The position numbers and the translations under genes are program-made. From a virus, in the IMG/VR virus record IMGVR_UViG_3300034105_002232: a stretch of 64,000 nt of DNA. The stretch is one strand, 5' to 3'. Positions 3,174 through 62,950 of the stretch are shown one piece after another (position 1 is the stretch's first letter; the number at the start of each line of letters is the position of its first letter). The notes under the pieces were generated by a model. The model did not search any database and had not been told where the DNA came from. It saw nothing but the letters and a program-made list of their open reading frames with translations.

Positions 3174-3896
3174 TTATTCCTGTATACACACCAGCTCACA
3201 AACTTCTCTTATGATGTCTGGACAGATAATACGTACCAAATTAGCTACACCAACATCGTTGGTGTAAAAATAACAATTCCACATCCAATCTCCATCTTTG
3301 ACCAACTGCTCTGTGGTATTTTTAGGCAGCTTGACCAAATCTCCCAGTTGCTGCAGATAGTTATGGACCTGCGTCCTTGATTTTATGTCAAACCGTTTCT
3401 CTTTAAGGTATATTCGATATCTAAATTTTGGTTGTCTATTTACTATTATTGCGTTGCCTTGCAACCACTGACTACTGACATCAGATTCTGGGCCTGTAGC
3501 AGACAGTATCTGATGTCGAAACTGGACACCAATGGCCAATGCTATGGATTGTAGTATTGATTCTGATTCGGCATAGAAGCTGATTTTTGGCTCTTCAATC
3601 CTGACCCTTATGTCAGCATGTTTGTGTATCAGTCTTTTGAGATCAATCAGCAGACCCAGATCAGCTTCTTTGAGTTGCTCTTTTAGCTTACGGTCCCACC
3701 ACGATCCGCCTCCCAGTGAATACGATCGAGCACATGATTGCCGGTGCTGTAGATTGGCCTTGATATCATCGTACCGGATACTCTTGCAACCAGGAGCGTA
3801 AATTTCTAATCGATAAAGATACTGTTTAAAATACTGTTTGGCAGTATATTGTATCTTTGTATCTTTAGACAGGTTCTGCCAGAACAATGTATCCAT
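3174..3896 (-). CDS. hypothetical phage protein
   Basis: 240-aa ORF overlapping the end of clpA. Confidence 0.7.
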   Translation of the reverse strand: MDTLFWQNLSKDTKIQYTAKQYFKQYLYRLEIYAPGCKSIRYDDIKANLQHRQSCARSYSLGGGSWWDRKLKEQLKEADLGLLIDLKRLIHKHADIRVRIEEPKISFYAESESILQSIALAIGVQFRHQILSATGPESDVSSQWLQGNAIIVNRQPKFRYRIYLKEKRFDIKSRTQVHNYLQQLGDLVKLPKNTTEQLVKDGDWMWNCYFYTNDVGVANLVRIICPDIIREVCELVCIQE

Positions 3897-6144
3897 TTTC
3901 GTCTATTCTATAGGTTGAATCGGTATTCGCGATTGGTTGAAATGTAAACTCTTTGTCATGAAAATCAATTATGATAGTGCTCACTGGCGCAATCTTGTCA
4001 AACAATATGCGTTTACTCAATGGCACTTTGATTAGATCGTTGATTTTTCTCTGCAAAGGTCTTGCACCCATTTTGGGATCAAATCCTGTGGTAATCAATT
4101 CATCAACAGCAGCTTCAGTTAGTCTTACACGTAACTGTTTGTCTATTAGAAGATCATTTAATTCTGCAATAAACTTGCTAACAATTTTACGCATACTTAG
4201 ATCATCTAATTTAGAAAATTTAACAATACCATCTAAACGATTTCGGAATTCAGGTTTAAAGAATTCTTTAACAGCACGATCATCTTCTTGATTTTTTTGT
4301 AACTCTTTACCAAAGCCAATGTTGTTTTTTTCGTTGTCTGCTGCACCAAGATTGCTGGTTAAAATAATCATGGCATTACGACAGTCAGCTTTCTTACCAT
4401 TGCTGCTGGTAATTGTGCCTTCGTCCATCATTTGCAGCAAAATGTTACTAACGTCGGGATGAGCTTTTTCAATTTCATCCATCAAGATAATGCAATTGGG
4501 ATTTTTTTCAATGTCACTGATCAGCAACCCACCACCCAGATTGCCATCCTCGTAGCCAACATAACCAGGGGGTGCACCAATAAGTTTAGCAACAGTATGT
4601 CGCTCTTGGTATTCACTCATGTCATACCGCAGCAGTTTCATACCAAGATTTTCTGCCAGCAACTTGGCCAGTTCTGTTTTGCCTGTGCCAGTTGGTCCCA
4701 AGAACAAGAAGTTACCAATTGGTTTGTTTAGGGCTTTTAATCCTGCACGGCTCACATAGATTTTTTCTAATACTGTATCTACTGCAGCATCTTGACCGTA
4801 CAGTCGATCCTTGATGCCAACTTCAAGATTTTCAATTCCTTTGGCACCTTCGGTGTTGCCAATTGATTCAATTGGCAATCTTGTCAACCGGCTGATGGTG
4901 TGTACAATATCGGCACCCGAAACAATCCAATTGGTATCTTTGATTTTGAGTCGAGCACACGACGCATCTATTAGGTCAATGGCTTTGTCGGGCAATTTTT
5001 TATCAGTTTGATAACGCACACTTAGATCAACTGCGGTGTTAATGGCATCATCAGTGATGGTGCCTCCGTGGAATTTTTCAAAGTGTAATCTTAACCCAAA
5101 CAAGATATCTTTGGCAACTTCAGCACTGGGCTCATCAATGGTGATCCGTTGGAATCTGCGCATCAGAGCACGATCTTTTTCAAAACTCTGGCTATATTCT
5201 TCCCAGGTAGTACTAGCAATAACTTTAATTCGGCCTTTGCTCAATGCAGGTTTGATCATGTTACTAAAGTCCACACTGCTTTGACTTCCTGCTCCTGCTC
5301 CACGCATCTGGTGTGCTTCATCGATGAACAAGATCGCTTTGCCTTTTACATTTAGTGCAGCCAGTACCTCGTGAATTTTTTCTTCAAAGTCGCCGCGATA
5401 CTTGCTACCTGCTAGCAAACTACTAATATCAAGATTGTACACTGTGTAGTCTAATAGATATTCTGGTACCGTTTTTAACACAATTGCCAAAGCCAATCCT
5501 TCTGCAATAGCAGTCTTACCAACGCCAGGATCGCCTACCATTAGTATATTGCTTTTGTTGCGGCGTGCAAGAATTTCTACTATTTCGTTGGTCTCGGCAG
5601 CACGTCCAATCACTGGGTCAATCTTGCCGTCCTCGGCCTGGGTGTTGAGATTGTCACAATACCGTTCAAGTATCTTGTCTGCCTGGCCGGCATTTGCAAC
5701 TGTCTTGCCTGCGTCTGATTTATACTCTTTGTTGTATGTCTCTATTAGTTTTGCACGATCAAGACCATACTTGACCATGAAATAATGTGCGTAGCTGTTG
5801 GATTCTGCATGTATGCTCAAGAATAAATCTAATATTTGAATATGCGTTCTTGCACTAAACAGGACCTGAGTAAATGCTCGATTAAACACCCGTTCCAGAG
5901 CATGGGTTTTTTTAGGATCACTGGTATCGTTGACAAGATATGTTTGATTGGCAAGATAATCTTCGATGTCGGTTTCTAATCCTTTGATATCTGTTCCGTA
6001 TCCGGATAGAAGCTCTTGGAAGGGAGTATATCGTATCATGCTTAAAAACACATGTTCAAGGGTCACATACTCATGACTTAAACTTTTAGCCAGTTCAGTG
6101 GCTTCAACTACAATGTAATCAATTTCAGGGTTGGTTTGTAACAT
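3865..6144 (-). CDS. clpA: ATP-dependent Clp protease ATP-binding subunit (ClpA family)
   Basis: Clp N-domain; two AAA+ modules (GDPGVGKT, GPTGTGKT); IGF ClpP-docking loop; GARPL. Confidence 0.92.
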   Translation of the reverse strand: MLQTNPEIDYIVVEATELAKSLSHEYVTLEHVFLSMIRYTPFQELLSGYGTDIKGLETDIEDYLANQTYLVNDTSDPKKTHALERVFNRAFTQVLFSARTHIQILDLFLSIHAESNSYAHYFMVKYGLDRAKLIETYNKEYKSDAGKTVANAGQADKILERYCDNLNTQAEDGKIDPVIGRAAETNEIVEILARRNKSNILMVGDPGVGKTAIAEGLALAIVLKTVPEYLLDYTVYNLDISSLLAGSKYRGDFEEKIHEVLAALNVKGKAILFIDEAHQMRGAGAGSQSSVDFSNMIKPALSKGRIKVIASTTWEEYSQSFEKDRALMRRFQRITIDEPSAEVAKDILFGLRLHFEKFHGGTITDDAINTAVDLSVRYQTDKKLPDKAIDLIDASCARLKIKDTNWIVSGADIVHTISRLTRLPIESIGNTEGAKGIENLEVGIKDRLYGQDAAVDTVLEKIYVSRAGLKALNKPIGNFLFLGPTGTGKTELAKLLAENLGMKLLRYDMSEYQERHTVAKLIGAPPGYVGYEDGNLGGGLLISDIEKNPNCIILMDEIEKAHPDVSNILLQMMDEGTITSSNGKKADCRNAMIILTSNLGAADNEKNNIGFGKELQKNQEDDRAVKEFFKPEFRNRLDGIVKFSKLDDLSMRKIVSKFIAELNDLLIDKQLRVRLTEAAVDELITTGFDPKMGARPLQRKINDLIKVPLSKRILFDKIAPVSTIIIDFHDKEFTFQPIANTDSTYRIDENGYIVLAEPV

Positions 6145-49199: not shown

Positions 49200-49291
49200 T
49201 GGTACCAGCGGAGGGAATCGAACCCTCTCAAGAACGCTAATCTGGCGCTAAAAGGTTTATAAAACCTCTCTGACTACCAAGTCTCGCTGGC
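49200..49291 (-). tRNA. non-canonical tRNA with UAU anticodon, minimal D-arm and long variable arm
   Basis: GCCAGCG/CGCTGGT-A-CCA; GACT-TGGT-AGTC; TTTATAA loop; GAGGG-TTCGATT-CCCTC. Confidence 0.75.
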
Positions 49292-52876: not shown

Positions 52877-52929
52877 ATTAGTATTTAAGCACATATTTGT
52901 TAATCCGTTAAAATTAAATAAGTACAGTT

Positions 52930-54030
52930 ATGACAAACTACTGCCCTGAACTTTTCCAAACAATGTATGTGCAAAAACTCAATGAAAACGAAGTTAAGCT
53001 AGGTCATTGCTGTAACTCAGCAAGATCTGATCCAGTCTCAACAGTTGACATGCATCATGAATTCTTAAAGAAAGGAAGAGTGTTCTACTTAGAACACAAC
53101 AAGTTACCACCTGCCTGCAATATCTGCGTTGATTTAGAAAATAAAGGAATTTATACTCTTAGGCTACTTAGTTTAGAAAAAATTACACAAGAAGTAACAG
53201 TACCAAAACTTGAACTGTTGTTTTATAATTGTGATCCTATATGCAATCTAAAATGTATCATGTGCAACAGCGAATGGAGTTCGGCCTGGATCGATGACGA
53301 AATAAAACTTGGTATTCGATCAGATTTAAAAATAAATCGCACAAAAAATAACAATCTGTATCATGACATGGATCTTTCAAATTTGACTGCAATTCATTTT
53401 AATGGCGGCGAACCATTTATGACTCGGGATCATTTAAATTTATTAGCATTTGTCTGTCAAACCAGATCATCAAAAGACATAAGCGTAACCTACAACACCA
53501 ACGCCACGTGGCCAATTACTCAAGAGATAATTGACATGTGGGCCAAGTTTGGTGGAGTTACTGTGTTTTGCAGCATTGATGGTACCCATGAAGTATTTGA
53601 CTATGTTAGATACGGAGATTCTTGGCAAAATGTAGAGGCAAATATTAAAAGCTATCAGAATATAAAACTAGAACATTTTCAAATTGAAATACATGCTGCA
53701 ATAGGATTACATAATATTTTATACATTGATGAACTGTATTCGTGGGCTGATCAAAATAATCTTGAGTTGAAATTAGGATGTGTAACACATCCTTTAGAAA
53801 TTAAAAATTTTCCTTTTGCAGCAAAACAACAATTGATCAGTTACCTACATAGTCTGCCTAGTACAACAAACACACAAATAATTCTTAACGCTGCCAATGC
53901 CATAGACGAAAATTCAGATATTGGTTGGCTTTACTGGATTAAAAATCTTGACCGTATCAGAGGCAACAACTGGAAGCAGAGTCTGCATAAGTTGTACGAG
54001 CTGGATCCAGAATATTTTGATTCTATTTGA
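52930..54030 (+). CDS. radical SAM protein with N-terminal twitch-like domain
   Basis: CNLKCIMC, GGEPF, N-terminal CP..CC..CNIC. Confidence 0.88.
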   Translation: MTNYCPELFQTMYVQKLNENEVKLGHCCNSARSDPVSTVDMHHEFLKKGRVFYLEHNKLPPACNICVDLENKGIYTLRLLSLEKITQEVTVPKLELLFYNCDPICNLKCIMCNSEWSSAWIDDEIKLGIRSDLKINRTKNNNLYHDMDLSNLTAIHFNGGEPFMTRDHLNLLAFVCQTRSSKDISVTYNTNATWPITQEIIDMWAKFGGVTVFCSIDGTHEVFDYVRYGDSWQNVEANIKSYQNIKLEHFQIEIHAAIGLHNILYIDELYSWADQNNLELKLGCVTHPLEIKNFPFAAKQQLISYLHSLPSTTNTQIILNAANAIDENSDIGWLYWIKNLDRIRGNNWKQSLHKLYELDPEYFDSI

Positions 54031-54040
54031 AGCTCAAATC

Positions 54041-54124
54041 TGGTAGTAGACCAGGGATGAGGACCTCATCCTGCACCGGTCTCCGGGAATTATAAGGCCC
54101 CGCCGCATACCAATGCTGTCTACC
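54041..54124 (-). ncRNA. tRNA-like RNA (UAU loop, minimal D-arm, aberrant T-arm, encoded CCA)
   Basis: GGTAGAC/GTCTACT-A-CCA; GCAT-TGGT-ATGC; CTTATAA loop; T-arm replaced by a CAGGATGAG-GTC-CTCATCCCTG hairpin. Confidence 0.6.
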
Positions 54125-54154
54125 AATTTTGTAACACCTGCTGAAACTAGAGAC

Positions 54155-54179
54155 AAAAAGAAAGCCCTACAAGAGGGCT
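54155..54179 (-). terminator. intrinsic terminator after pqqA
   Basis: AGCCCT/AGGGCT stem followed by TTCTTTTT. Confidence 0.7.
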
Positions 54180-54199
54180 AACTTTTAGTTCTTTGTATA

Positions 54200-54274
54200 T
54201 TAGCGATTAGCAATGTACATTGTAATTTCAAAACCAAAACGTAAATCAATTGCTGCTGGTGTGGTCCATGCCAT
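54200..54274 (-). CDS. pqqA: pyrroloquinoline quinone precursor peptide PqqA ([24 protein letters not shown]), not in ORF track
   Basis: W..P...DLRFGFE-xxx-Y-xxNR signature; AGGAGA RBS 6 nt upstream; own terminator. Confidence 0.93.
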
Positions 54275-54398
54275 TTTAAATCTCCTTGTAAGTTTACATA
54301 CTGCATTAGTATGTATGATTATAATACACTAAAATACCGTATAATAACATCCTGGCGATCATGATTTTGCACTACGTCAATTCATTAGACAGCGCGAA

Positions 54399-55037
54399 CT
54401 ATTTCTGCATTAATTTGTCAACAAATTCAAGCAGCAGGTGATGCTGACCACCTGTCCATTTGTTTTGCATCCAGGAATAGCTGTTGTACCAGTGGCGATC
54501 TGCTTCGGGATGGCATCCAATCAAGCCTACACGATCTTGCATGACAGCCATTGGTGCTCCGTTGGGGTAACTGGCCACTGTGTCGTACTGGCCATCACCC
54601 ATATAGGTGCAACCATCGTAAAAGTACATGTGGGTTGGGTGGTTGTTCCAGGTCACTGGCATATGTTTGGCATGCGGTCTATGCGTGTCTGTGCCAGGGC
54701 TTCGAATGTACTGTATTGCTCTAACACGGTCAAGCAAGCCAAAGTAATTGGTATCGGCCCAATATGCCCCCATGCAAATGCCAAGATACCTACCACCGTT
54801 GGCTACAAAATTACGTATACGTTGCCCATTAACTTGCATCAATTGATCAAATGAATCTGAGTCACCAAAGCCGCCGGGGACGCAGACCAGATCTACGTCA
54901 TCAAAGAAATCGTTTTCTAATTCATGTCGGGTAAAAATTTTAAAATCGTAGTGTGCGCTCAAGGCTCGGATTATGCCATTGCCGCTTTGCACTGAACATT
55001 TGGGTTGATGCAAGAACAGTGCTATCTTGGGTTTCAT
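54399..55037 (-). CDS. GATase-like protein (BPL_N family)
   Basis: VPGG, GGRYLGICMGAY, GCHPE. Confidence 0.8.
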   Translation of the reverse strand: MKPKIALFLHQPKCSVQSGNGIIRALSAHYDFKIFTRHELENDFFDDVDLVCVPGGFGDSDSFDQLMQVNGQRIRNFVANGGRYLGICMGAYWADTNYFGLLDRVRAIQYIRSPGTDTHRPHAKHMPVTWNNHPTHMYFYDGCTYMGDGQYDTVASYPNGAPMAVMQDRVGLIGCHPEADRHWYNSYSWMQNKWTGGQHHLLLEFVDKLMQK

Positions 55038-55052
55038 TTATGTACTTATGTC

Positions 55053-55076
55053 AAAACAAAGCCCCTAAGGGCTTTT
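55053..55076 (-). terminator. intrinsic terminator after the plcP-GT unit
   Basis: AAAGCCC/GGGCTTT stem plus GTTTT. Confidence 0.7.
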
Positions 55077-55132
55077 GTATGGTAACTGGTTACGAGTTCC
55101 AGCGGTGCTCTATCGTTGCACCCGATTTAAAC

Positions 55133-55843
55133 CTAATTCCAGTATTTGGTATGATCCAATCTATCCCAATATTGTTTATTATTGCGATTAACAAAGTTTC
55201 TAATTAGATACGTTGCCATTCCAAAATAACCCATTTTTTTAAATCTTCTTGAGTCTTGTCCAAAATAGTGATCAACAATTCTAAATTTTTTTGTACTGTA
55301 CATTCTTGAAAGAAAGAAATCCTCAGAGGTTACATAGCGTTCAGAAAACCCACTATATTCCTCAAATTTAGTCTTACTAGTTAGCATAAATGCACCAACA
55401 GCAAATGGGACAAAATATTTAAATACTCCGTTCACAAAGTTAAAAATCATGAAACTTATATTGGCTCTGTGATCGTTGTCGTAACAATAAATTTTTGCCG
55501 TAATTAAATCTAAATTGTAAAACTCAATTTCATCTACAGTATCTTGAATTACTGTGTCTCTAAAAAATTGAACATCAGAATCGATGAACAAAATGTAAGG
55601 TGTCGTGGCCAACCGTGCACCGTTGTTCCTGGCTACAGAAACTGTGCCACCATTGATTATTTCTACATTTAAAAAAGCACTGTTGGCTTGTATAACCTGT
55701 CTTGTGTTATCGGTAGAACTATCAGCAATAATGATTCTAGTATCTCCAAGTTTTTGCAATCTCAGTGAGTCTAATAAATGATGAATATACGTTTCTTCAT
55801 TGCGACAAGGTACTACAATTGTAATTTTATCACTTAGTTTCAT
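55133..55843 (-). CDS. family 2 glycosyltransferase
   Basis: IVVPCRNEE, IIAD.STD.T, ARNNGA, FIDSD, SED. Confidence 0.9.
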   Translation of the reverse strand: MKLSDKITIVVPCRNEETYIHHLLDSLRLQKLGDTRIIIADSSTDNTRQVIQANSAFLNVEIINGGTVSVARNNGARLATTPYILFIDSDVQFFRDTVIQDTVDEIEFYNLDLITAKIYCYDNDHRANISFMIFNFVNGVFKYFVPFAVGAFMLTSKTKFEEYSGFSERYVTSEDFFLSRMYSTKKFRIVDHYFGQDSRRFKKMGYFGMATYLIRNFVNRNNKQYWDRLDHTKYWN

Positions 55844-56009
55844 TTTTAATACATTTTCCTTCTATTCGAAAAGAATCAAATTTTATCCAATATGTCATTG
55901 ATTGCAAACTAGTCTCGCAACTGAGTTGATCCGGAAATTCCAACATCACTCTGCCCGGAATGTCCTTTGGATCTTTTAGGTGCACCACTATCAATATCAT
56001 CAACCACAT
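55830..56009 (-). CDS. small secreted/membrane protein with two Cys
   Basis: Start refined to MWLMIL; overlaps the 3' end of the phosphoesterase gene. Confidence 0.5.
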   Translation of the reverse strand: MWLMILIVVHLKDPKDIPGRVMLEFPDQLSCETSLQSMTYWIKFDSFRIEGKCIKNETK

Positions 56010-56760
56010 TGTCTGTCTCCTGTGTCCAAGTAATAATTTCCCAACGGCCATCATGATGTTCCACTAGTGCAGTCATGCTTTCCACCCAATCGCCATCATT
56101 CATGTATATGATGCCATCTATTTCTTTTATTTCTGCATGATGAATATGACCACATATCACTCCATCAAAGCCACGCTTGCTGCAATAGCCAGCAAGATTA
56201 TGCTCAAACTGAAAAATAAAGTCCACGGCTTTTTTGACCTTATGCTTGAGATAAAAAGATAAACTCCAATAACCAAAGCCCATCCTACGACGAAGCCAAT
56301 TAAAACGGCTGTTAACACTGAGAATAACATCATATGCCTTGTCTCCCAAAAAACCCAACCAAGGAGCCAGTCTGGTAATGCCATCAAACAAGTCGCCGTG
56401 TGTGACCAAGTAATGCTTACCGTCCACTCCAATGTGTTCGGATTGATTTGCTATTTCTATTAGACCAAATCCTGGATCATATTGCATAAAGGGTCTGAGA
56501 AATTCATCATGATTGCCTGCCACATACACTACTCGGGTACCACGTTTGGCATGCCCCAGTACTCGACGAACTACATTGGTATGACTTTGTTTCCAACGCC
56601 ATTTGTTTTGTTTAATCTTCCATGCATCAATTATATCACCTACAAGATACAGTGTTTCGCATGAGTTATTTTTAAGGAAATTGTTAAGTGCTTCGGCCTT
56701 GCAATCTTTGGTCCCTAAATGAACATCTGAAATAAAGATAGTGCGATGTGTCTTGTTCAT
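55909..56760 (-). CDS. LpxH-like metallophosphoesterase, PlcP-type phospholipase C candidate
   Basis: RTIFISDVHLG, LYLVGDIID.W, GNHD, HGD.FD, DGVICGHIHHA, NDGDWVES.TALVE. Confidence 0.8.
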   Translation of the reverse strand: MNKTHRTIFISDVHLGTKDCKAEALNNFLKNNSCETLYLVGDIIDAWKIKQNKWRWKQSHTNVVRRVLGHAKRGTRVVYVAGNHDEFLRPFMQYDPGFGLIEIANQSEHIGVDGKHYLVTHGDLFDGITRLAPWLGFLGDKAYDVILSVNSRFNWLRRRMGFGYWSLSFYLKHKVKKAVDFIFQFEHNLAGYCSKRGFDGVICGHIHHAEIKEIDGIIYMNDGDWVESMTALVEHHDGRWEIITWTQETDNVVDDIDSGAPKRSKGHSGQSDVGISGSTQLRD

Positions 56761-56782
56761 AATAATATTTAAGGTCTTTAAG

Positions 56783-56800
56783 ATTACAAACCCATTACAA
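56783..56800 (-). promoter_or_regulatory. Pho box upstream of the plcP-like gene
   Basis: TTGTAAT-GGGT-TTGTAAT direct repeat with 11-bp period. Confidence 0.65.
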
Positions 56801-56804
56801 AGTC

Positions 56805-56834
56805 AAATAAAAAGCCCTTCCGGGCTTTTTATTT
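56805..56834. terminator. bidirectional intrinsic terminator after the porin
   Basis: AAATAAAAAGCCC-TTCC-GGGCTTTTTATTT. Confidence 0.8.
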
Positions 56835-56840
56835 TTGGTA

Positions 56841-58244
56841 CTAGAAACTTATTTGACTTCTTAGCATGACTGCTTTTTCACCAGTTACTCTACTGCCTGA
56901 CGCACCCACTGGGGCATTGAATTTGGTGTCTACATAATTGACCATGAATCGAACATTGTCATTCAAAAACCAAGTAATACCGTATGTGATCGCTGTGGCT
57001 TGATTGGCTTTGCCTGCTACTACGGCAATAGTTTCAGCATCGAACTCACTAGATCTAATACCTACCTGCCATGCTCCAGGACCACCACTGGTAAATGCAT
57101 TGTTTGGTTTGATCCAACCAAATGTGCCATCTTTGTAAGCATGACTTTCTCCGGTTAAATTGTATACCAACTGAACATAGTTACCTTTCACTTCTTGATT
57201 GGATCCTGTGGCTGGGTCGTATTTGTAATTAAACTGCTCGCCCTGTACTTTCAGGCCTTTCCAAGCAAACGCTGCCTCAATGCCTTGGCGTGTTCTTGCA
57301 GTGTCGCCGCTTAGAGCTGACCCTGTGAACCAGGCACTTTGTTGACGAGCTTCAGTACGACCACTGGAAGGAGTTACTCCAGTCTTTACATCACCAGTAC
57401 TGTACGCTGCACCCAAATGAGCCACAAAGTCTTTGTTCTGAATCAACTCAGCAAAGTTTGTGGTCACACGTCCAATAATATCTACACCATCTACAGTGGT
57501 AGTCTTGTTGGCACGACCACGACTTGCAGCCAGTGCATAAGTTATACCTGCTCTAGGCACACCGTGTAACATGATGCCTGTTTCTTTAGCTGGAATAAAC
57601 TCACCTTCAGTTTGTCCAATTAGGCTACGCTCCATGAAGTCAATGTTGTTGGAGCTGGTCAATTGCTCTAGACTGAACGGCATCTTGAAAGTACCAAACT
57701 GAAGTTGCATTACCGGATTGGCAGCATAATTGACCCAGAACTCATCTATTGTGGATGTGGTAGAACTGGCACCAACATCATTTCCAAAGTTTGCTAGCAA
57801 CTGATATTTGAAGTCTTTGGCAATCTGTCCTCTAACTCCAAAGCGACCACGTCTAACTTCTAATGCATCTTGATATGGGTCTGTGGTTTGACCTGCACCG
57901 TACACTGGACTATAACTTCTATAATCCATGTGAATTCTACCTGTGAATTGTGCAGTGGTATTTCCGTCTTTGGATTTGATTCCTAGTCCGTTTTCCATTA
58001 CAGCACCATCACTGGCTTTACTTAGTCTGTAGTTGTTGTTGTCTCGCAGGTCTTTGTCCACACGAGAAGAATTAAACTGTGCATTTTCTACTTTGTCTTT
58101 GTGTGCTTCCACTTTGGTAGCATGCTCTTCCTTGGTTAATATTCCTTTTTGCAAAAGAATATCCAAGGTGTCTGTGTAATCATCTGCCATTGCAGGTGAC
58201 GCAAAGCATAGTGCTAAGAGTGATATAATAGTAATTTTTTTCAT
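56841..58244 (-). CDS. phosphate-selective porin (OprO/OprP family)
   Basis: Signal peptide, GRIHMDY, RRGRFGV.G, G.FKMPFSLE.LTSS..IDFMERS, C-terminal F. Confidence 0.88.
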   Translation of the reverse strand: MKKITIISLLALCFASPAMADDYTDTLDILLQKGILTKEEHATKVEAHKDKVENAQFNSSRVDKDLRDNNNYRLSKASDGAVMENGLGIKSKDGNTTAQFTGRIHMDYRSYSPVYGAGQTTDPYQDALEVRRGRFGVRGQIAKDFKYQLLANFGNDVGASSTTSTIDEFWVNYAANPVMQLQFGTFKMPFSLEQLTSSNNIDFMERSLIGQTEGEFIPAKETGIMLHGVPRAGITYALAASRGRANKTTTVDGVDIIGRVTTNFAELIQNKDFVAHLGAAYSTGDVKTGVTPSSGRTEARQQSAWFTGSALSGDTARTRQGIEAAFAWKGLKVQGEQFNYKYDPATGSNQEVKGNYVQLVYNLTGESHAYKDGTFGWIKPNNAFTSGGPGAWQVGIRSSEFDAETIAVVAGKANQATAITYGITWFLNDNVRFMVNYVDTKFNAPVGASGSRVTGEKAVMLRSQISF

Positions 58245-58252
58245 AATATTCC

Positions 58253-59278
58253 TTATTTCCAGATTGCTTGACCGCTAGGGTCTTTAAGTTCTTTTTTCCA
58301 GTTGTCCTGCACCAGTTTAATCACTGAAGCTGGCATGTGTACGTACTCTAATTCCTCACTCATCTTGGAACCGTTTTTGTAGCTCCAGTCAAAGAATTTT
58401 AGTATTGCGCGGCCTGTTAGTAGATCGGCTTGTTGCTTGTGCATTATGATAAAGCTGGCACCTGTTGCTGGCCATGAATCTTTACCAATTTGATTTGTCA
58501 ACAACAAATACATGCCTGGAGCATTGTCCCAATCTGCATTGGCAGCTGCCGCTTTAAATGCTTCGTCGCTTGGCTGAACAAAGTTTCCATCACGATTCTT
58601 CAATTGAGCGTGAGCAATCTTGTTCTTTTTAGCATAGGCGTATTCCACATAACCAAATGCACCTTTGATTCTTTGTACCTGCGCTGCAACACCTTCGTTG
58701 CCCTTGCCGCCAATACCCACAGGCCACTTGACTGCTGTAGCAGCACCAATCACTTTACCAAATTCTGCATTAGTTTTGCTTAGATAATCACACCAGATGA
58801 ATGTTGTACCTGATCCATCAGCACGATGTACAACTGTGATTGGTAGTGCGGGTAAAGTAACGCCAGGATTCAAGCTGGTAATGGCCTGATCGTTCCATTT
58901 AGTAATTTTACCCAAATGGATATTGGCAATCACATCACTGGTAAGTTTCAATTGCCCTGGAGCAATACCGTCTAGATTTACTACTGGAACTACACCACCA
59001 ATAATAGCTGGGAATTGCATTAGACCTTCTTTTTCTAGGTCTTCTGGTTTCAATGGCATATCACTTGCGCCAAAGTCCACTGTCTTGGCTTTGATCTGTT
59101 TGATACCACCACCTGAACCGATGGATTGATAGTTGAGTCCGATGCCGGTTGCTGCTTTATACGCTTCTGCCCACTTTGAATAGATAGGATAAGGAAATGT
59201 TGCTCCTGCTCCTGTTAAGTCTGCTGCTGCTACTTGACCTGTTAATGCAATCAGTAACATTGCTAATAGTTTTTTCAT
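58253..59278 (-). CDS. pstS: phosphate ABC transporter substrate-binding protein
   Basis: GAGATFPYP, NYQSIGSGGG, DFGASD, RADGSGTT, KGNEGV, GYVEY. Confidence 0.96.
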   Translation of the reverse strand: MKKLLAMLLIALTGQVAAADLTGAGATFPYPIYSKWAEAYKAATGIGLNYQSIGSGGGIKQIKAKTVDFGASDMPLKPEDLEKEGLMQFPAIIGGVVPVVNLDGIAPGQLKLTSDVIANIHLGKITKWNDQAITSLNPGVTLPALPITVVHRADGSGTTFIWCDYLSKTNAEFGKVIGAATAVKWPVGIGGKGNEGVAAQVQRIKGAFGYVEYAYAKKNKIAHAQLKNRDGNFVQPSDEAFKAAAANADWDNAPGMYLLLTNQIGKDSWPATGASFIIMHKQQADLLTGRAILKFFDWSYKNGSKMSEELEYVHMPASVIKLVQDNWKKELKDPSGQAIWK

Positions 59279-62339: not shown

Positions 62340-62368
62340 ATTATAGCAAATGATGAATTTATTGTCAA
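62340..62368 (-). promoter_or_regulatory. consensus sigma70 promoter
   Basis: TTGACA-17-TATAAT. Confidence 0.8.
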
Positions 62369-62369
62369 T

Positions 62370-62396
62370 AAAAATAGCACCCTAGGGTGCTATTTT
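62370..62396 (-). terminator. terminator of the tmRNA gene
   Basis: AAAATAGCACCCTAGGGTGCTATTTT palindrome. Confidence 0.8.
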
Positions 62397-62399
62397 AGC

Positions 62400-62776
62400 T
62401 ATTTGTTAACAAGGCGCCGCCCCCGGGTCTAGAGTTTCTTAGGCTGCTAGTAAAACTGCTGAGTCATTTGCAGCAACACGGCCAAAAAAGGCAGCTTTGC
62501 TTACAGTAACTTTTACAGTACCATTTGTATTTGCGTTTGCATTTACGAGTTTTGCTTGATTTACAGTCATCGCCTACTGTGCTGTCCATATCCTTACTTG
62601 ATGCCCAATCGAAACCTGGTCGCCCCCATCAGAAGTACTCTTGATCTCCAGTTTACCGGTGGGGATCAATCCACTTTCAACCTTCTCCGATCCGGCGTCC
62701 CGTTTAGAATACTTTTGGTGGAGGCGAGGGGAATCGAACCCCTGTCTTGAACACCTTTCATTCTACTTCATACAAC
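62400..62776 (-). ncRNA. ssrA: circularly permuted (two-piece) tmRNA
   Basis: Acceptor piece ...GACAGGGGTTCGATTCCCCTCGCCTCCACCA (CCA at 62716-62718) precedes the coding piece GGGGGCGACCAGGTTTCGA (G1 at 62627); G3-U70 pair; tag ORF 62439-62540 ends in LAA. Confidence 0.9.
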
Positions 62777-62782
62777 AATTCT

Positions 62783-62950
62783 TTACTTTACTTCTCTAAG
62801 TTCACATCTGGCTTTGATGGCGTTTTCTCTGTGATGCATGATTGCTCGCACAATTTCCTCACATTCAGTCCGGCGTGTATAACTGCGCCAATCTCGCTCA
62901 ACTCCATCGGCAACGACCAAAACCACCAAGACCCAAACCCAAATATCCAT
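62783..62950 (-). CDS. small protein with hydrophobic N-terminus and two Cys (55 aa), not in ORF track
   Basis: MDIWVWVLVVLVVADG...CEE...ARCELR; manual translation. Confidence 0.5.
   Translation of the reverse strand: MDIWVWVLVVLVVADGVERDWRSYTRRTECEEIVRAIMHHRENAIKARCELREVK

Follow-up and report, generated by a model that had tools for sequence, protein, structure and literature searches.

The window, as the term is used here, is the whole stretch of 64,000 nucleotides of viral DNA (IMG/VR record IMGVR_UViG_3300034105_002232). An 84-base element on its minus strand, called B, lies between a pqqA-like gene and a convergent radical SAM gene. A second, intact tRNA gene of the same family, called A, lies elsewhere in the window. 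The features are given one per line, where R1 is a covariance model of 31 distinct relatives from which B was left out.

49200-49291, minus strand: A, an intact tRNA(UAU) gene of the sister subfamily (ARAGORN tRNA-Ile(tat); 69.2 bits against R1)
52930-54030, plus strand: convergent radical SAM gene (PF04055), with 10 bases between its stop codon and the CCA of B
54041-54124, minus strand: B, a degenerate tRNA(UAU) gene of 84 bases in the GCAT-TGGT-ATGC subfamily (covariance model and alignment)
54041-54051, minus strand: acceptor 3′ strand GTCTACT, discriminator A and encoded CCA of B, identical to the relative L125
54052-54073, minus strand: long hairpin replacing the T-arm of B (palindrome at 54055-54071; pair probability 0.92-0.97)
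54074-54083, minus strand: remnant of the extra (variable) arm of B, 5′ strand only (alignment gap over columns 51-61)
54084-54124, minus strand: intact 5′ half of B, with the acceptor 5′ strand (54118-54124), the A linker, the D-arm (54105-54116), GG and the anticodon arm (54084-54102)
54163-54179, both strands: two-way intrinsic terminator between pqqA and B (terminator scan)
54200-54274, minus strand: pqqA-like gene of 24 codons, upstream of B (PF08042, E 4e-10)

By their Pfam matches (PF08042 and PF04055) both neighbours of B are real genes, so the earlier note placed the element correctly between pqqA and a convergent radical SAM gene. The terminator at 54163-54179 is predicted to end the pqqA transcript just before B and, from the other side, to stop the radical SAM transcript once this has run through B in antisense. 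The promoter scan found no consensus promoter between this terminator and B. A candidate picked by hand ahead of B, with TTGTCT and TACAAA 17 bases apart, does not satisfy the criteria of the scan.

The window's radical SAM gene is probably unrelated to the neighbouring pqqA, to judge from comparative sequence data, since its orthologs sit in the tRNA arrays of related phages, where the stretch examined holds no pqqA. Orphan pqqA-like genes of 24 codons with their own terminator recur at L124:6329-6400, L197:4218-4289 and L214:6579-6650, and no pqqB-E genes were seen near the orphan pqqA-like genes.

Read on the minus strand, the acceptor stem of B has 7 bp (GGTAGAC/GTCTACT with a G1-U72 wobble), followed by A73 and an encoded CCA. 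A single A links it to the D-arm GCAT-TGGT-ATGC, after which comes GG. The anticodon loop is CTTATAA with TAT at 54092-54094, and its stem has 5 bp plus a C-U mismatch at the loop-closing position, which is also unpaired in 6/31 relatives in the alignment. Ten bases, GAGACCGGTG, stand between the anticodon arm and the long hairpin. The acceptor, the anticodon loop and the likeness of the D-arm to that of A (the two share one layout) had all been described correctly in the earlier note, and so had the long hairpin without a T-loop. A perfect palindrome stands there in place of the T-arm.

The same note expected standard tRNA finders to miss B, and neither of the two used here calls it. Rfam gave no RF00005 match over 53900-54350 even at E up to 10, and ARAGORN left B uncalled, though its calls for the window comprise 13 tRNAs and a permuted tmRNA.

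A pattern search with the 5′ half of B gave as the first relative a 95-base tRNA-Ile(tat) in a viral contig, having the D-arm of B, a long extra arm and a normal T-arm. A looser pattern (TTGGTA followed by YTTATAA and, at a distance of more than 25 bases, by a T-loop) was searched in viral contigs and matched at least 119 of them. What unites the members is the UAU anticodon on a long stem, a D-stem of 4 bp closed by UGGU after a one-base linker, and an extra hairpin that is conserved. ARAGORN labels the members tRNA-Ile(tat). They fall into two main subfamilies, GACT-TGGT-AGTC with the extra-arm loop CAGATTA and GCAT-TGGT-ATGC with the loop mostly CAGATGG, to which A and B belong, respectively.

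The combined D-arm and anticodon-loop pattern of B occurs in 12 viral and 51 metagenome contigs, giving 63 subfamily copies. One of them is cut by a contig end, and the 62 full-length copies were compared. The subfamily pattern had no match in prokaryote genome contigs. Thus, the phage tRNA-like family of odd architecture that the earlier note supposed from two sequences is real and large.

The one-base linker, the GCAU/AUGC D-stem and the UGGU loop are invariant in 31/31 distinct relatives, and B has them all. B also conforms to the subfamily in its anticodon arm (a 5-6-bp stem with the loop YUUAUAA) and in its acceptor (7 bp and A73, with CCA usually encoded). It fails in the extra arm, which is kept in 62/62 full-length relatives and has a stem of 5 bp and a loop of 7 bases that mostly reads CAGAUGG. 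The T-arm of all 62 is a 5-bp stem with a 7-base loop, which reads TTCRAAT in 61 and ATCGTAA in L160. The earlier note held that B would be a pseudogene if all its homologs had a normal T-arm, and a normal T-arm is what they have.

In the alignment of the 31 distinct sequences, the five-helix structure has 99.2% of its cells paired and 16 pairs changed on both sides. When the partners were slid by one to three columns as a control, 28-46% were paired. The cloverleaf of the family is supported by this covariation among aligned sequences.

Against R1, intact members of the subfamily score 106-116 bits, the sister subfamily 58-71 and ordinary tRNAs less than 40. B scores 59.8 bits (E 6.7e-14) over model positions 1-92. 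This is an end-to-end match to a model built only from relatives elsewhere; hence B is no chance look-alike.

One element of the earlier description survives in its letters only. The CCGG-AGA-CCGG stretch is present in B, but it is not a conserved arm, because the family covariation assigns its bases to two other helices. We rejected it as a conserved helix: one half serves as the 3′ strand in the anticodon stem and the other as the 5′ strand in the extra arm, each covarying with a partner elsewhere.

The damage to B was located against its relatives, of which L125 is the closest intact one. The two are identical in the first 26 bases, and L125 has the acceptor stem and the T-stem 3′ strand as in B. 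The first lesion is the absence of 11 extra-arm columns (51-61), which hold the loop and the 3′ strand. The second is a rewritten T-arm region, still of 17 bases, that reads UGAGG-UCCUCAU-CCCUG with an altered 5′ stem strand. In the aligned T-loop, UCCUCAU, both U55 and A58 are replaced, and the T-stem is left with one mismatch and two wobbles.

The lesions are confined to these two modules. Among the invariant columns, B breaks 0/28 in columns 1-50 (to 54075) versus 9/16 in columns 51-85 (Fisher p 1.6e-5). Its pair 6-67 is A-U, versus G-C in the syntenic L142, L163 and L181, a change on both sides.

The two genes also differ in predicted folding. The minimum-energy fold of L125 is the family cloverleaf, its arms having pair probabilities of 0.87-0.99. 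That of B has a broken acceptor stem; its D-arm reaches 0.34 and its anticodon stem 0.64, while the new hairpin has the 0.92-0.97 given above.

This hairpin holds the perfect 17-base palindrome (8+8 pairing) at 54055-54071, which about six changes in the T-arm have yielded. Random substitution would rarely give a perfect 8+8 palindrome. An origin by one template switch or one deletion was tried by hand and rejected, both possible alignments requiring several events. The palindrome reflects either a recent complex lesion or selection on the hairpin or the whole RNA.

A technical origin has also to be weighed. The odd 3′ half might be an assembly or sequencing artefact of the source contig, and chimeric reads can indeed produce palindromes. 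We find this extremely improbable, as the flanking sequence is coherent, the two acceptor strands match each other exactly and the neighbouring gene ends cleanly 10 bases away.

Selection on the hairpin would mean that a relic has been reused, the hairpin being kept as an RNA 3′-end, stability or roadblock element between the convergent transcripts and the tRNA-like remainder being passive. The perfection and strong pairing of the palindrome suit such a role, and so does its position, for it starts 25 bases past the radical SAM stop, within the 3′ untranslated stretch and ahead of the terminator at 54163-54179. Yet the hairpin at 54052-54073 is not called as an intrinsic terminator by the scan, a U-run is absent on either side and on either strand, and the true terminator is 90 bases on. 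Furthermore, the radical SAM ortholog of L163 has no comparable hairpin after its stop. The palindrome occurs only once in the window, and its two matches in viral contigs are both inside coding sequence and were judged to be chance. We therefore consider the reuse unlikely.

The relatives show what the locus holds when the tRNA gene is intact. The proteins of window 54399-59278 are 66-84% identical to those of a block in L181, the closest phage compared having about 84% protein identity, and L143 and L142 have counterparts of the 54399-55037 protein at 66-70% identity. In L163, L161, L142, L181, L126 and L150, a long tRNA array opens with an intact subfamily gene. Next to it comes tRNA-Gly(GCC) in 4/6 of these contigs, and this tRNA-Gly is missing downstream of B.

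In L163, the order is tRNA(UAU) (5145-5239), tRNA-Gly(GCC), a small ORF and a convergent radical SAM gene (3727-4866). The window's radical SAM gene is 43% identical to L163:3727-4866 over the full length (E 2e-106). Such orthologs were located by tblastn in loci collected around the tRNA, and a protein-pattern scan with the window gene gave no viral relatives. As the relatives' tRNA(UAU) stands at the array head and, in L163, is convergent with the orthologous radical SAM gene, B is by gene order the positional counterpart of their intact tRNA(UAU) gene.

Homology between the window and the relatives starts and stops where the tRNA does. Upstream of B, the conserved leader of the relatives' intact tRNA is absent. 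The family tRNA lies within 4 kb in 0/80 loci around homologs of the 54399-55037 gene, and neither 52900-55900 nor B had a match among GenBank phages.

The leader occupies about 110 bases upstream of tRNA(UAU) in L142, L163, L181, L126, L150, L130, L148, L153 and L140. It directly precedes the first tRNA of the array. In it, ACACTTTGG and CCAGAGTGT pair and enclose a variable hairpin, and the box CAATCAT, which is conserved, stands before them.

Within the window, A supplies what B has lost. It folds as a cloverleaf (z -4.2), has identical copies in several viral contigs and is called by ARAGORN, yet it falls below the Rfam tRNA gathering score. Among the contigs checked, this window is the only one with two family members, A intact and B damaged. 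All the others have a single member, including five contigs of 62-92 kb (two B-type, three A-type). Thus, A makes B redundant.

We infer that B is probably a relic, the pseudogene of a redundant and recently disabled phage tRNA(UAU) gene. Where freshwater phages related to this one have the intact subfamily gene, it heads the long tRNA array, and tRNA-Gly(GCC) and the convergent radical SAM gene follow. This lineage would have gained or kept a second AUA-reading tRNA, A of the sister subfamily, and the old AUA-reading copy, B, would then have become dispensable. It would have been disabled by changes confined to two modules, in which about 11 extra-arm bases were lost and the T-loop and the T-stem 5′ strand were rewritten into the perfect hairpin, with U55 and A58 gone. 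The damage is probably recent, since the rest of B is still intact.

The earlier note offered decay as one of its two alternatives, and decay fits the retention of the extra arm and the 5-bp/7-base T-arm in 62/62 full-length relatives. Two observations sit less easily with a relic. The changes are not scattered evenly as in long neutral decay, for A73, CCA and the pairing of the acceptor are perfect, as is the 5′ half. In addition, the T-arm changes give the perfect 8+8 palindrome, for which no simple derivation by a single event was found.

Going by established tRNA structure, the RNA of B should be non-functional in translation. U55 and A58 build the elbow of a tRNA; in B the D-loop GG has no U55-C56 partner and T54 no longer pairs with A58. 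The acceptor/T helix is of the wrong length, and the universally kept extra arm is missing. Moreover, a terminator lies directly upstream, and both a consensus promoter and the relatives' leader are absent.

It might nevertheless be held that B still works as an AUA-decoding tRNA with an aberrant T-arm. The anticodon loop, acceptor stem, A73 and CCA are intact, and a non-standard T-loop is tolerated in L160. That member (L160:745-836), however, is otherwise complete. Its T-loop is ATCGTAA instead of TTCGAAT, but the 5-bp stem is paired around 7 loop bases and the extra arm is there, whereas B has lost U55, A58 and an arm that every full-length relative keeps. Bacterial EF-Tu, RNase P and the ribosome depend on the length of the acceptor/T-arm helix and on the elbow. 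To our knowledge, T-armless tRNAs occur only with specialised factors, in nematode mitochondria. A working B is hardly credible.

The other alternative of the earlier note is a non-translational tRNA mimic, and the confinement of the damage speaks for it. B would be maintained as a non-translating mimic that has no elbow but keeps the acceptor stem, CCA, the D-arm and the UAU anticodon arm, and it might, for instance, lure away a host defence enzyme that cuts tRNA, or a protein that binds it. No invariant column of the 5′ half is broken, the acceptor is fully paired even at pair 6-67, where both sides changed relative to L142, L163 and L181, and a stable helix rather than disorder took the place of the T-arm. 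A recent lesion accounts equally well for the intact parts, though, and the predicted cloverleaf is unstable. The damaged form is a single instance with no conserved counterpart, as it occurs in none of the 63 subfamily copies nor in about 170 loci of relatives. Besides, it stands directly behind a strong terminator, with neither leader nor consensus promoter. We rate the mimic as quite improbable.

A more specific version is that B is a maintained tRNA-derived RNA in which the elbow and the extra arm have been traded for a rigid helix. It could then serve as a decoy or regulator, directed for example at a host enzyme by which AUA-reading tRNA is cut or bound, and A would do the decoding. This we take to be very unlikely. 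What positive support the hairpin reuse and the mimic have is the damage pattern itself.

As a relic, B can be set beside several known systems. The intact subfamily genes, such as L125:383-474 and L163:5145-5239, equal B in the 5′ half, A73, CCA and the array-head position near a radical SAM gene. Unlike them, B is without the extra-arm loop and 3′ strand and has a hairpin where their UUCGAAU T-arm stands, and its score is lower by about 50 bits. The nematode T-armless mitochondrial tRNAs, in which a short loop replaces the arm and dedicated elongation factors are used, share with B the absence of a canonical T-loop, but B has a longer helix instead. For B, there is no sign of specialised factors such as these tRNAs have.

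Pseudogenes of tRNAs are routine beside phage tRNA arrays, such as those called "Pseudo" in T4-like phages (PMC1524935). Like them, B is derived from a tRNA, falls below tRNA requirements and lies beside working tRNA genes. It differs from them (PMC1524935) in that its intact ortholog, its replacement and its exact lesions can be named, and in that the decay lies in two modules.

The family to which B belongs, rather than B itself, resembles two further kinds of tRNA. The allo-tRNA(UAU) (Mukai et al., PMC5389517) likewise combines a UAU anticodon with a long variable arm, but the acceptor/T stacks of allo-tRNAs are 8/4 or 9/3 (PMC5389517) versus 7/5 in the family. The nematode nev-tRNA-Ile(UAU) (Hamashima et al., PMC3333845) also has a UAU anticodon and a long arm. 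The nev-tRNAs, however, are eukaryotic and derived from tRNA-Leu (PMC3333845), and B has lost the long arm altogether.

Taken alone, B would be an unremarkable case of a redundant tRNA gene falling into disuse. Its interest lies in the family, a little-described phage tRNA(UAU) family in which every working copy keeps the extra arm and the T-loop. The only copy without the two is the one with a replacement nearby.

Two other contigs have the locus in altered form. L214 has the order pqqA, terminator and tRNA(CAU). In L197, pqqA and the leader are followed by a fragment of the subfamily tRNA, its first 33 bases, which breaks off after U34 of the anticodon loop. At L197:4969-5751 (IMGVR_UViG_3300033571_007756), this truncated tRNA(UAU) is followed by a 223-residue ORF and a different, complete tRNA(UAU), and the contig ends before any 3′ half of the split tRNA gene. 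The ORF (5031-5702) has zinc fingers and a PD...DPK motif, by which it is probably a homing endonuclease, and also weak matches to HNH_5 and DUF7487. A tRNA(UAU) comes about 700 bases after pqqA in this contig, and the replacement tRNA(UAU) lies at 5666-5753. The arrangement looks like a cassette of an endonuclease and a replacement tRNA inserted into the tRNA gene.

The split gene of L197 and the tRNA(CAU) after pqqA in L214 indicate that the locus turns over repeatedly. Together with B, they mark it as a place where freshwater phages repeatedly replace their AUA-reading tRNA genes.

Several minor observations concern the family and the tRNA arrays. The centre of the extra-arm loop is GAC, not GAU, in 8/63 subfamily copies (L126, L140, L150, L151, L153, L170, L181 and L183). 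Copies related to A are present but unannotated in Synechococcus phages S-SRM01 and S-SKS1, and one is annotated as tRNA-Ile in Sinorhizobium phage Phosso. Three relatives carry a CUA-anticodon tRNA, labelled "Pyl" by ARAGORN (L142:9718-9793, L181:7464-7539 and L214:3557-3631), that is possibly an amber suppressor, and the window has none. The permuted tmRNA gene of the window, encoded in two pieces at 62348-62809 on the minus strand (RF04321, 120.7 bits), is also found in the relatives L124 and L272.
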